Shown here: positions 7,006-18,795 of the stretch, piece after piece
How positions within the stretch are numbered: position 1 is the first letter of the stretch
How the letters are laid out: each line of letters opens with the position of its first letter
Source: Oligoflexia bacterium
GTDB lineage: Bacteria > Bdellovibrionota > UBA1018
Direction: 5' to 3'
Length of the DNA: 64,000 nt
NCBI GenBank assembly: GCA_963758495.1
Contig: CAVWVI010000004.1
Location: 768,001-832,000 of the forward strand
Notes under the pieces: generated by a model
What the model saw: the letters and a program-made list of their open reading frames with translations, nothing else
Database searches by the model: none
Told to the model about the DNA's origin: nothing
Program-made: the position numbers and the translations under genes

Positions 7006-7839
7006 ATGAAAACAAAGTCTTTTGCCTTTCTTCTTTTGCTGGTAGCACAATCAGCGTTTGCTGTTGTCAGTGACGAGCAATTCAATGAGTTGTTGAATCG
7101 AGTAGAAGCGAATGAAGCTCAATTAAATAAAAGTTTTCAAGGAATATCCGCCAGAATGCATACCATTCGCGCAGAGAATAAAAATATTATTCCTATCGGA
7201 TCAATTTTGCCTTTTATTGGTGCTCATGCTTTACCAGATGGGTATTTGCCGTGTAACGGAGAGTGGAAAAAAACGGCAGATTACCCTGAATTAGAGCGAA
7301 TGCTTCCAAGCAATCTGAGTACGGATGAAGAGAAAAAAGCTAAGCCAGGTGAGTTCAAACTTCCAGATTATCGCGGTCGCACATTGATCGGGGAAAAGAA
7401 AAATACCTCAAAAGAATCTTGCGTCCTAGGCTCGTGTCAAGGAAGCGAAACAGCAAGACTCGAGACCTCGAACTTACCTGAGCACAAACACAATGGAACT
7501 ACTAGTGAAAGTGGATCTCATAGTCATAATGCAAGCACTGGAGAAGCAGGTGAGCATACTCATACAGCCTCTGCACGACGTGCATTTCAAGAGGCTGATG
7601 GAGGTCGTGGTTTTGCAGGATGGGGTTACGATTCAAATCACGGAAATGCACAAAGGGGCAGAGAGGAAATAGATGTAATAAGAGCTGGTAATCATACTCA
7701 CAGCGTCTCTATTGCTCCTTCTGGAATTCACACTCATGAGTTTACTACCACAATAACAAATCCAGGAGGTAAAACCGCTGAACCTTTTTTTGTGTTGAAT
7801 CCTTCTGCAACTGTTAGATTTATGGTTAAGGCTAGGTAG
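7006..7839 (+). CDS. Secreted phage tail-collar domain fibre protein with HxH repeats
   Basis: Signal peptide MKTKSFAFLLLLVAQSAFA; collar motifs PIGSILPF..LPDGYLPCNG..DYPEL..FKLPDYRGR; five HxH motifs; C-terminal NPSATVRFMVKA. Confidence 0.88.
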   Translation: MKTKSFAFLLLLVAQSAFAVVSDEQFNELLNRVEANEAQLNKSFQGISARMHTIRAENKNIIPIGSILPFIGAHALPDGYLPCNGEWKKTADYPELERMLPSNLSTDEEKKAKPGEFKLPDYRGRTLIGEKKNTSKESCVLGSCQGSETARLETSNLPEHKHNGTTSESGSHSHNASTGEAGEHTHTASARRAFQEADGGRGFAGWGYDSNHGNAQRGREEIDVIRAGNHTHSVSIAPSGIHTHEFTTTITNPGGKTAEPFFVLNPSATVRFMVKAR

Positions 7840-7844
7840 ATCCT

Positions 7845-8540
7845 ATGTTTTTTTCTCAATTAGGAATTCCTACATTATTTGCAGGATTAGGTCTTTTATT
7901 TATAGCTAACACATCATTTGCCACTGAATCCATTGGAACTTGGCCACAATCAATAAGACCTATTGAGGTAACTTTTGGACCTGATCACTTCCTTGGATTT
8001 GCGGATATTGAAGGAGTCCAAGTGCCTCAGACAGAACTTGAAAGTCCAGACCAATTTCATTGGTTGAATCCCAATCCGAATTGGAGAGACTCGGTACAGT
8101 GCGGAGAGCCTACTCGTGGACATGGATATATTCATACCTTATCTACCCTATTGGGTGATGAGAAGACAGTGAAAATAGGTATTCCAATTAAGTTTAAATA
8201 TGAGACAAAATTAAATGGAATTAGAAAACAGCGTCTCTTAGTTGCGCCACTTTTGTCTATAACCACTTATCAAATGAATGCTGACAATTACTTACTGACT
8301 CCTCTGAGTGAAGAAGTGATCTCTATGGAATCGCTCCAACAGCAACAAGGAATTCAAAAAACAGATTTAGAATCTGCACTGAACCTTAACTTTGATTCAG
8401 TTCTACTGAGTCGTCCAGTTGTCGTTCCGGCTCATGCTCATGTACAAATTCGTATTAATTGGAATTTCGATTTCTTATGCGGAGAAAAACACTCGTTATT
8501 TCAAATAGGCGATCAAATTAACCTGATCAGTGTTCTTTAA
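7845..8540 (+). CDS. Hypothetical secreted, beta-rich protein in the toxin-complex operon
   Basis: 231-aa ORF 5 bp after the fibre gene; signal peptide ending TSFA; no recognised domain. Confidence 0.7.
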   Translation: MFFSQLGIPTLFAGLGLLFIANTSFATESIGTWPQSIRPIEVTFGPDHFLGFADIEGVQVPQTELESPDQFHWLNPNPNWRDSVQCGEPTRGHGYIHTLSTLLGDEKTVKIGIPIKFKYETKLNGIRKQRLLVAPLLSITTYQMNADNYLLTPLSEEVISMESLQQQQGIQKTDLESALNLNFDSVLLSRPVVVPAHAHVQIRINWNFDFLCGEKHSLFQIGDQINLISVL

Positions 8541-8562
8541 AATCAAAGGTAGAAATATTTTT

Positions 8563-15300: not shown

Positions 15301-18037
15301 TGACAATCTGAGTCGATTGTCTCATCAGTGGGATAATCTGTACCCCTCCTCTTCTGAAGACCCATTAGAAAGTCTTTCTTATCAATTCGCCGATGCAAAA
15401 AAACCCGCTTTCACTCAAGTCAGCCAAAAGATTTTTGGGTTAAAGGGCTCTAGCCAAAGAATAGATGGATTTCTTCACTCTGCTAATGGAGAGACGTTAG
15501 GCGATGCTTCATGGGTCCAGGATCATTGGATCATCCGAAACCTGAGTCTTGTAGACTCTAATGAGAGGGCACAGACTCAGTTTTCACAATTACTCATTCC
15601 TGAAACTTTTGAAAATGTAAAAGTCAAAGATCTATTTACTTCCGCTCAAGCATTATCATCGCAAACAAGAGATTTTATGGGTTTTATTTTGAATGACGAT
15701 AAGACTTATCAAACCGGAGTGCGCGGATCAGGAGTCACAAATACAAAAGTGATCCAAGGGACAAACGGTCATGAGCTTGAATTCACTTATACTGAAAATG
15801 GCCAATTTACGAGAACTGAGCGAATTAACGCACAAAGCCAAAAAACTCAAATTCAAAATGAAGCAGGTGATGCTACTTTATATCAATATGATGCTCTCGG
15901 GCGGCTTGTGAATGTGATATTGCCAGATGGAAAAATCCATTCCGTCAAATTTGATTCGGAGGGCCGAGTGACTGAAGTCAATCGTTCAGAAATTGGAAAA
16001 ATCATTTTTCGGTATGATCTTATTTCAGGATTGTTGAAGTCTAAAACTTTTTACAATAAAACAGGAGAAATTTCACACTCTCTTGGAGTGGTATACGATG
16101 AAATTGGGAGAAAAGTTCAGGAAATTTGGAATACGAATTTTGGACAGACTGAGGCCATTACAGATGGAAGGGCTGACGCCAGTCGGAAATGGACCTATAC
16201 GTATTTTTATGATGGAAAACTTCCATCAGGAAAAATGATACCTGGCCAACTTGGATTTTTGACTTCTATTCAAGGACCTGTGTACACTCAAACAATTACT
16301 TATCGTGCTGATGGAAAAATGGAAAAGTCTGAAGTAAATTTTACCCATTGGGGCCAACTGACCCAAGACTTATCCTATCAACCCGATGGAAGTCTTAAGT
16401 CCCAGTTGCTTCAATTTCAGTCTTTATCATCTGCGCATGAAGATGCGGTTTCAACTTCTTCTTTGCTAGAATGGGAGCCCAATTCTTATGGATTGCTTGG
16501 AACGATGAAAGTAGATGCCAAACCTCTTTTTGAATTAACTTATGACTCTTTTGGAAAGGTCTCTTCTCTTCAATGGTCTGAGGGAGCAAATAAGCAAAAT
16601 GCCGATCAGTTTCAATATGATCCTCTGACTCATCAAATGCAGGGATTTTCCAGAACCGTATTGGGAACTCAATCCGAAAATCGCTGGAATTTTAATCAAC
16701 GGGGGTTGATTGAATCAGAATTTCTTAATTTCGGGAATCAGATGCTTAACCGGAACTATTTTTATTCGCCCCCACGCTTTCTTATTTCTGATCAAGACGA
16801 CCAAGGAAAAAGAACTTATGACTATTCTTCGACTGGTCTGCTGACTGCATTTACTGATGGTGGAAAAAAATCAGAAATTAAAAATCAATCGAACTCTTGG
16901 GATCTTAACGAAGGGGATCAGTCACTCTCTTATCGGCAGGATGATTTTGGACGTGTGATTCAAAGAGGGGCGGATCAATATATCTATGGTCCAAATGGGA
17001 GGGTAGAGAAAGTCATTCATTCAGATGGTTCAATCGTCGAGTACAGTTACGACGAAATGGGTAAACGAATTCTAAAGAAGAAAGATGGAAGAATTGTCGA
17101 AGCTTATTGGGATGGGATGGTTCTTACTCAGAAGGCTATTTTAAAACGAGTTGAGATAAATGGCATTACATTGGGTATGTTAGAAAATAATCAGTTTCAC
17201 CCTATGGCCACTGATTTCCGAGGCTCTGTTCTAGAGGAAGATGAACAAGGGTCGAACTTTATTTCTACTTACGGACAGCGAAAAAAGCAGACTCAAAATT
17301 TACATACGAAACTTATGGATTACGTTACTCAAGGGTTCGATGAGGATCTGCAAGCTTATCGCATGGACCATAGAGATTATGATCCTAAAATTAAAAGATT
17401 TTTAACAGCAGATCCTCTCTTCTTTGAGAAGATCGACTCATGCTTAGAGAGTGCTGAAGAGTGTAATCTCTACGGTTACGCCAAAGGGAATCCTGTTAGT
17501 TTTGTGGATCCTACGGGATTATCCGGTATTCTTACCCTTAATTCAGATCGAGGTGGCGGTGGTAAACTTGATGGACATTCTTGGATAACCTATCGAGTTG
17601 ATGGAACTACGCACACAGAGTCTTATGGAACTTGGGCAATACCAGGAATGAGTTGGGTCACAATGGTTTAATTAATGGTAGAGAGGATGGCCGTTCTGGC
17701 AGTGTTCAAGTATCCTTTCACATGAACGATAAGCAGGAGACACGTTTTTTGAACATGTTGCGGGTATTCAAAGTCAAGGCGACAAAGGATGGTCTGCAGA
17801 TTGCCCTTGTTCGTGCTTTGCGACTAATGCGGTCTATGAAGCCAATGGAAAGTACTTTGATAACGGCACTCTATTTTCCAATCCCAACGCTTTAGCGGAT
17901 TCAATTCAGTCATTTACAAAGGGCATGAAAGTCAGACTTTTTTTGGACGATTTAATGACCACAAAGATGCTCCTTGGTTAAATAACCAATCAGATGGATT
18001 TAAGCATTCTATAGACAATTTATTGCAGGGAAATTGA
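12389..18037 (+). CDS. Secreted TcB-TcC/Rhs fusion (SpvB, FG-GAP, YD repeats, Rhs core); C-terminal payload frameshifted (intact ORF ends at 17671)
   Basis: Signal peptide ending SSQA; SpvB-like GTYSLPL..P..RGG..P.L...YSPSSGISEWGMG; DLNGDGxxDL repeats; YDALGRL repeats; RDYDPKIKRFLTADP and autoprotease motif NLYGYAKGNPVSFVDPTGL. Confidence 0.9.
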
Positions 18038-18463
18038 ATGATTTTTAAATTATGGCTTATTCTAATGAATGCGATTCTCAGTCTTGTTGGCTATCAAACC
18101 TCAGTGGATCATTTCAAGTCCTTATCAGCTTCTTGTGTGAAAGTTGGATCCACTACATACCTTGAAATCGATGCAGAGATACCAGACAGTGCTCTTTTCT
18201 TTAATAGTTCACAGTTGTTGAAGCAGAATCTGAAATCAAACTTACATTTAGGAAGAGATGTCGCACCTCAAAAAAAAATCTTTATTGACAAGATTATAGT
18301 ATCTACAACAGCAATGAAATCGATTCAAGAAATTCCATTGCTAAGCGGAGCATGGCATAAAATAAGAATCAGTTTAGGTCAAATATTAGGACACGCCTAT
18401 ACTCTCAAGATCGTTTATCACGGAAGTGATCGCGTGATTGGCCAGTGTGCATTATGGCAATAA
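18038..18463 (+). CDS. Putative immunity protein for the Rhs payload
   Basis: ATG directly follows the reconstructed toxin stop (18035-18037); 141 aa with a hydrophobic N-terminus. Confidence 0.55.
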   Translation: MIFKLWLILMNAILSLVGYQTSVDHFKSLSASCVKVGSTTYLEIDAEIPDSALFFNSSQLLKQNLKSNLHLGRDVAPQKKIFIDKIIVSTTAMKSIQEIPLLSGAWHKIRISLGQILGHAYTLKIVYHGSDRVIGQCALWQ

Positions 18464-18466
18464 CAA

Positions 18467-18795
18467 ATGATTAAGGAAATCCTATTCTCTATATGCATGA
18501 TGTTTCCTGGAGCTTGTGGGATAAAAAATATTGAATTTCATCCGACTTCTTGATTGATATCAGGGAATACAAAGCTGCATTTAAAAAAAGAGGAGTTATT
18601 CAAAAGTCGGAAGGTTACAAGAATCGATATTTTGTTATATTTGATATATCAATTCAAAATTCCCTCAGTATTGGCTTTGAGTTTCATCTTTCTGACATAG
18701 TTTTGAAAAATCCGAATGGCGAAAGATTAGTTACGTATCGAAATAGTCCTGTATCAGGACAAAGAAAAAGAGGTTTTGTTTATTTTGAAAATTAG
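18467..18795 (+). pseudogene. Frameshifted small lipoprotein-like gene, possibly a second immunity gene
   Basis: ATG 18467 gives MIKEILFSICMMFPGACGIKNIEFHPTS*, and coding continues in the 18550-18795 frame. Confidence 0.45.

Follow-up and report, generated by a model that had tools for sequence, protein, structure and literature searches.

In a stretch of 64,000 nucleotides from an Oligoflexia bacterium (contig CAVWVI010000004.1, positions 768,001 to 832,000; the window), four co-oriented genes encode a phage-like fibre, a protein of 231 amino acids (aa), a putative translocase (A subunit) and a fused cocoon protein (BC). We hypothesize, and consider it fairly likely, that these genes specify a Sec-exported protein injector which resembles the toxin complexes (Tc or ABC toxins) and carries a different membrane-entry module. 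The system is real and conserved, a Tc variant with a probable beta-barrel entry module. The four open reading frames (ORFs) are located on the + strand, like all features below unless stated otherwise, at 7006–7839, 7845–8540, 8563–12384 and 12389–17671. Their intergenic gaps of 5, 22 and 4 bases agree with the original prediction of four co-oriented genes 4–22 bp apart. The conserved unit consists of two genes, A and BC. Judged by its reading frames, the window copy has an intact machine and a decayed payload gene end.

Domains and predicted structure of the A subunit

The A subunit (8563–12384) comprises 1273 aa from its ATG, or 1284 aa from a GTG at 8530. Its last 1200 residues were modelled with a predicted local distance difference test score (pLDDT) of 80 and a predicted template modelling score (pTM) of 0.64; the model starts at residue 74, and helix (H) and strand (E) numbers refer to model residues. 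An N-terminal domain of ~330 residues (8782–9771; model residues 1–330, all helix) lies in the position of the TcA shell and finds just generic helical-repeat matches, with no specific fold match. It is followed by a descending long channel helix of 75 residues (9802–10026; H341–415), located within the stretch aligned to TcdA1 2012–2516, and by a tip domain of 290 residues (10108–10977), modelled as a beta-sandwich of the LecA/PA-IL fold at the tip of the channel. LecA is its best fold match in the whole-model search (15% identity). The tip domain is interrupted by a Ser/Thr-rich beta-hairpin insert of 132 aa (10342–10737; strands E529–553 and E620–644), the putative pore module, whose tip is a glycine zipper of 38 residues (10495–10608; PF05433, E 0.002), the only Pfam match in the protein. 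Ascending channel helices (10981–11577; H734–782, H791–882, H893–932) align to the TcA channel, and a C-terminal beta domain (11605–12348) takes the position of the TcB-binding funnel, where the model alignment extends to residue 2516 of TcdA1 and residue 2540 of XptA2. At the fold level, A shares with TcA a channel of antiparallel long helices followed by a C-terminal beta domain. The compact TcA-like translocase that had been predicted is thereby retained in its channel and TcB-binding topology; the tip, where a LecA-fold domain bears a long beta-hairpin, departs from it, and the profile match to canonical TcA is not significant.

The insert is the sole segment of mature A with a 19-residue hydropathy above 1.5. 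Across the family, the hairpins are long (60–180 residues), in register and Ser/Thr-rich, and in most relatives the tip is amphipathic and bracketed by Cys instead of being a glycine zipper. A might also be a TcA-like translocase whose hairpin is just a spacer or sheath, with a short hydrophobic tip crossing the membrane and the LecA-fold ring serving as glycan receptor; the 38-residue zipper, as the only hydrophobic segment of the window's protein, and the lectin fold of the tip domain would agree with this. However, a 19-residue hydropathy above 1.4 occurs within the insert of 6 of 94 parsed A proteins, the tips alternate like strands and not like helices, and at 15% identity to LecA sugar binding is putative. 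We consider a spacer unlikely and prefer the hairpin as a putative pore module.

The TcB-binding domain PF18276 is unmatched in A, in the genome and in 34 scanned relatives, so that its Pfam model misses the A family. A profile of A against PDB sequences gives coiled-coil noise only, and the best sequence match to beta-barrel toxins is C2-II (E 6.5). An atlas comparison of A gives nothing at 0.9; one Myxococcota cluster, 13% of whose members have PF18276, scored 0.76.

Distribution and gene order

The profile of A detects the family in 9 of 401 genomes of the phylum, the source genome (G000) included, with two candidates scored per genome; the family forms 374 clusters at 50% identity. In Myxococcota, A is present in 41 of 301 genomes, compared with 11 of the same 301 for PF18276. 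A BC start is located within 1.5 kb of A in all of the best 30 Myxococcota loci (28 downstream, 2 divergent), and BC lies in the flank of 16 of 18 named loci; these two sets overlap, and kin are not independent. The fibre and the 231-aa gene have no match in any of the 18 named loci.

Within the source phylum, the complete order of fibre, 231-aa gene, A and BC is found at four loci in three genomes and two genera (G000 twice, G338 C248, G295 C328), and cut by contig ends at two further loci (G295 C147, G338 C95). The predicted conservation of the four-gene order is therefore seen within the phylum, and neither the fibre nor the 231-aa gene was found in the Myxococcota loci examined. The second operon of the source genome (C4:598664–588192) has the same order, a third A gene is also present, and both are split by frameshifts; the region C4:582469–598838 reads as split A and BC with a glycine-zipper payload, then a membrane-protein gene, then the third, split A. 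In another family, A is immediately preceded in 3 of 3 loci by a collar fibre of a different subfamily, and the 231-aa gene is missing; of all matches per genome, the A-linked genes of this subfamily account for 1 of 1, 2 of 2 and 1 of 2. In G138, an unrelated 239-aa gene is located ahead of A and BC. F5/8, PA14, ricin or FG-GAP domains are found in larger A relatives (of 34 scanned, 7 have these or other additional repeats), suggesting that targeting is either built into A or left to a separate gene.

Several loci deviate in other ways. Four Myxococcota genomes of 1.7–2.0 Mb (G537, G468, G543, G561; L101–L104) have one or two P-loop GTPase-like genes between A and BC, with hydrophobic N-termini and sometimes an additional lipoprotein gene; A of L101 and L105 has a Sel1 repeat. 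Archangium gephyra (L050) has two tandem A genes followed by one BC. In G262 (L043, 8984–13209), A comes to an end at 837 aa, next to an integrase-like ORF and conjugation-like genes, and BC is absent from the 20 kb examined. A fusion of A and BC in G615 was rejected, as A ends at a stop. Cultured carriers of A, which put knockouts and structures within reach, are Myxococcus eversor, Corallococcus terminator, Archangium gephyra and Sorangium sp. Annotation was looked up for 13 named cluster members: all read hypothetical protein, and one additionally 'Lipoprotein'.

BC protein, payload and candidate immunity genes

BC has 1760 aa (12389–17671). The cocoon (12389–17518) is a fused TcB-TcC-like protein with a signal peptide, an SpvB-like start (weak, E 0.063; 9.9e-6 in a relative), an FG-GAP propeller (E 1.1e-12), a YD/RHS shell (E 1e-17) and an Rhs core (TIGR03696, E 8.3e-16) ending in PxxxxDPTG, the PxxxxDPxG motif that precedes the variable payload. 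These domains confirm the TcB-TcC/Rhs fusion originally proposed. By its sequence BC is of an already known kind, since signal peptide, SpvB, propeller and RHS repeats make up the 'TcdB/TcaC' class (PMC3482391).

Behind the DPTG, the payload region (17519–18037) is split over several frames, which had been overlooked: 50 codons continue in frame to a stop at 17671, and open stretches in other frames cover 17602–17895, 17733–17981 and 17864–18037. Three payload fragments match no Pfam family, and the payload fragments do not match the payload of L050. Frameshifts from assembly error are disfavoured; when some two dozen housekeeping-type ORFs of relatives are looked for in the source genome, all are unbroken, and for this reason the decay looks real. 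The swappable payload of the original prediction is reflected in the polymorphic payloads of relatives, which where intact have 154–377 aa, and is broken in this copy. Payloads of relatives include TreTu_C (E 4.7e-24) and PT-HINT cassettes and are often followed by small genes; several start with hydrophobic or glycine-rich stretches. TreTu_C acts against bacteria. In G028 (L046, L047, L022), tandem orphan Rhs-core/payload modules with differing payloads lie beside BC starts, one of these payloads being ADP-ribosyl-cyclase-like (E 1.8e-5).

Downstream, a 141-aa ORF (18038–18463) with a signal-like N-terminus adjoins the payload region. It has no Pfam family and, apart from itself, one near-identical homologue; the immunity label proposed for it holds by position only, as a candidate periplasmic immunity protein. 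The stretch behind it (18467–18795; only family match DUF7076, E 0.025), with a short lipoprotein-like start and an ORF of 81–86 aa in another frame, is probably another immunity-like gene in broken form.

Export

Signal peptides were scored by our own heuristic in the classes lipoprotein, signal-peptidase-I-like (SPI-like) and none. The fibre, the 231-aa protein and BC are SPI-like. Full-length A relatives were assigned to lipoproteins in 58 of 114 cases and to SPI-like in 28 of 114 (86 of 114 together); the control ORFs give 60 of 1511 and 493 of 1511 (553 of 1511 together). A signal peptide on all four proteins, as first predicted, is thus found for three of them and for A at the family level, the window's own A being classed as 'none'. 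Since many A relatives are lipoproteins, the machine may remain on the surface of the producer and act through contact with the target.

The lipid anchors and fused adhesin domains of relatives, the low TM-score of the TcA match and the hydrophobic or glycine-rich starts of several payloads would also fit A as a surface stalk or display scaffold. It would hold the Rhs cocoon close to the target and form no conduit; the payload would enter in its own way, an idea put forward for other surface Rhs-shell toxins. However, both channel helices and the funnel-position domain are kept in TcA order, and an in-register hairpin of 60–180 residues has no evident role in a stalk. A stalk appears improbable to us, and an injector remains the preferred reading.

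Fibre and 231-aa protein

The fibre (7006–7839; 277 aa) has a signal peptide, a short coiled coil, a tail-collar domain (Collar PF07484, E 6.7e-8) and a T4 gp12-like HxH fibre, and would presumably form a trimer. Of 19 matched PHROG families, 18 are tail families, and alignment against the PDB gives the tail fibres 8kec, 9cuy, 1pdi, 1ocy and 5iv5, T4 gp12 among them, in line with the tail-collar/HxH fibre that had been predicted. The exported, all-beta 231-aa protein (7845–8540) models as a jelly roll of the carbohydrate-binding-module (CBM)/galactose-binding type, a candidate glycan-binding or fibre-docking accessory. On this model, receptor binding is at least as likely as the adaptor role originally assigned to it beside the fibre. 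The atlas comparison lists phage nozzle clusters at 0.83 for this protein, which is a lead only. That it arose from the N-terminal extension of myxobacterial A by splitting off was rejected (hhalign Prob 0.1). A complex prediction of the A helical domain, three fibre copies and the 231-aa protein scored 0.00 and is given no weight either way.

The two collar-fibre subfamilies do not align directly (Prob 0.6) and are connected via common PHROG families. In G000, each of four second-type collar-fibre genes is followed by large exported proteins without a known family (L067 7207–13620, L068 6730–13208, L069 3711–8303, L070 7709–11369), that of L067 ending in Ntox21 (E 7.6e-27); possibly these represent another fibre-coupled polymorphic toxin system.

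Evidence against the proposed model

Several observations weigh against a Tc-like injector with a beta-barrel module. No Foldseek match of A reaches E 0.001, TM-scores are 0.12–0.15 at root-mean-square deviations of 14–18 Å, and long helices inflate Z. Profile-profile comparison of A with 6 canonical TcA C-termini yields a best Prob of 2.7%, and the C-terminal domain alone gives nothing. No beta-pore toxin is found in the top 50 fold matches of A, the hairpin strands are modelled at pLDDT below 50, and the hairpin tip in the window is a glycine zipper without Cys. The 77 hairpins are kin, so that the register count overstates their independence. The 'none' score of the window's A reflects a weak h-region. 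Six Myxococcaceae loci (L053, L054, L058, L059, L060, L064) have one common, conserved coiled-coil-like payload of 164–173 aa in place of a variable one, and no clear immunity gene. G000 has 4 second-type collar genes at a distance from A, which argues against an exclusive link of fibre and A. Finally, A is found without adjacent BC in G028, G023, G262, L052 and one G000 copy; in G028 and G023 it stands alone, with BC and the orphan core-payload modules of G028 located on separate contigs.

These solitary A genes, and the collar genes that precede other large exported proteins in G000, would be expected if A were a stand-alone beta-pore toxin, with BC, fibre and CBM-fold protein as co-regulated, physically separate weapons. 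However, A and BC are adjacent in 30/30 and 16/18 Myxococcota loci as well as across two phyla, and the C-terminal domain of A lies at the TcB-binding place of TcA, which makes separate weapons very unlikely in our view.

Proposed mechanism, targets and significance

For the injector that we favour, signal peptides and conserved Cys suggest that folding would take place in the periplasm, after the chains have passed the inner membrane unfolded. BC would form a cocoon and, as in Tc and Rhs proteins, cut its own payload at the DPxG motif of the Rhs core. By analogy with TcA, A would oligomerize, its two long helices forming the conduit, and its C-terminal beta domain would dock the BC propeller. 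After target binding, each A could free its hairpin from the LecA-fold ring, and the hairpins could zip into a beta-barrel crossing the target membrane, through which the payload would thread. Targeting would be swappable, by lectin-type domains on larger A relatives or, in the source phylum, by a separate collar fibre with or without the CBM-fold protein, both presumably attached to the machine.

Targets probably include bacteria, as indicated by TreTu_C and PT-HINT payloads and the small genes that often follow; protists may be targets too. The common coiled-coil-like payload of the six Myxococcaceae loci, where no immunity gene is clear, and ankyrin-RING, PI3/4-kinase-like and leucine-rich-repeat genes of eukaryote-directed kind in the source genome and its kin weigh against bacteria as sole target. 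In the window, eukaryote-type effectors are an ankyrin-RING protein (45120–46439), an ankyrin protein (38787–39236) and a weak YopJ-like acetyltransferase match (29596–31104; E 0.0095).

Tc toxins are known as syringes that are set free by lysis, are directed at insects and have a helical tip. With at least 374 clusters, a family with the same channel and cocoon logic, another entry module and another export route would revise the view of Tc evolution. It provides a possible delivery route for Sec-exported SpvB-RHS toxins and a way in which predatory bacteria might kill, one open to testing. More tentatively, and with about as much doubt as confidence, if not slightly more, we propose a third class of protein-injection machine, combining a Tc helical conduit, an Rhs cocoon and a beta-barrel pore module. 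Sec would export it, a lipid anchor would often hold it on the producer, swappable lectins or phage fibres would aim it, and predatory bacteria would inject toxins into other bacteria with it. On this reading it would be the delivery subunit so far lacking for some of the signal-peptide-bearing SpvB-RHS toxins, commoner in Myxococcota than canonical TcA, and would link Tc syringes to beta-pore translocases in evolution.

Genomic surroundings

As predicted, Pfam scans of 50 window ORFs, most ORFs below 90 aa being left out, show no holin, endolysin, type VI secretion system (T6SS) or other phage structural family, and VipB was not found in the source genome (92% complete). Promoter and terminator counts at the operon are no higher than in shuffles. 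Just upstream, a short ORF (6423–6758, − strand) with a RelE-like start and a helix-turn-helix end is probably a decayed toxin-antitoxin pair. At 19179–20687 (− strand) the operon is flanked by a gene for an outer-membrane-barrel-like protein and one for a PI3/PI4-kinase-like lipoprotein; in G338 (L038 12473–14159) the same two genes (33% and 47% identity) are co-oriented and directly upstream of the fibre.

Comparison with known systems

With Tc toxins (TcdA1-TcdB2-TccC3, XptA, YenTc) the system shares the order of descending helix, tip, ascending helix and C-terminal beta domain, as well as a B-C cocoon with propeller, YD shell, DPxG core and variable payload. It differs in that A is half-size, is modelled without neuraminidase-like or Ig-like receptor domains and lacks a PF18276 match, and in that B and C are fused. 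In canonical complexes a TcA pentamer joins TcB-TcC at 5:1:1, injection being driven by a stretched linker and a trefoil knot. The canonical TcA tip consists of short hydrophobic loops, according to the available text of PMC11435725; here it is a LecA-fold domain with a long beta-hairpin. Canonical Tc subunits leave the cell by lysis, and nearly all co-released proteins are without signal sequences (PMC10847048, available text), whereas the present system has signal peptides. Tc toxins released by a type 10 secretion system (T10SS) have an adjacent holin/endolysin/spanin cassette, and none is found among the window ORFs scanned. A Tc screen (PMC7861908) used known TcA and TcB profiles, and its main text is without myxobacteria or Bdellovibrio.

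The signal-peptide-bearing, phage-like trimeric adhesive MAT fibres of the predator Bdellovibrio (PMC10769870) and T4 gp12 resemble the fibre; unlike MAT fibres, it is of a short collar/HxH type and tied to a toxin operon, and the word 'collar' is absent from the text of PMC10769870. The LecA/PA-IL, PllA and EclA lectins share 15–18% identity with the A tip, which is split by the hairpin insert and whose sugar binding is putative.

Anthrax PA, CDTb and the aerolysin family are beta-barrel translocases and pore toxins. The A family resembles them in its long Ser/Thr-rich, Pro-free, amphipathic-tipped hairpin, predicted as barrel stem at the family level; the carrier domain, by its best match in the whole-model search, would resemble LecA instead of PA domain 2 or an aerolysin core, and hangs on a TcA-type helical channel.

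A literature search, with supplements (dbTC tables and the additional files of Zhang et al. 2012 could list such loci) and most subscription papers outside its scope, found no description of the A family. Toxins with signal peptide, SpvB, propeller, RHS and tail-fibre repeats were described in 2012. The available text of that work (Zhang et al. 2012; PMC3482391) defines a 'TcdB/TcaC' polymorphic toxin class with signal peptide, SpvB, integrin-like propeller, RHS repeats, HINT and tail-fibre repeats, delta-proteobacteria being listed; the first four are common to BC. This text names no TcA-like partner of the present architecture; the A family is a candidate delivery subunit for the class.

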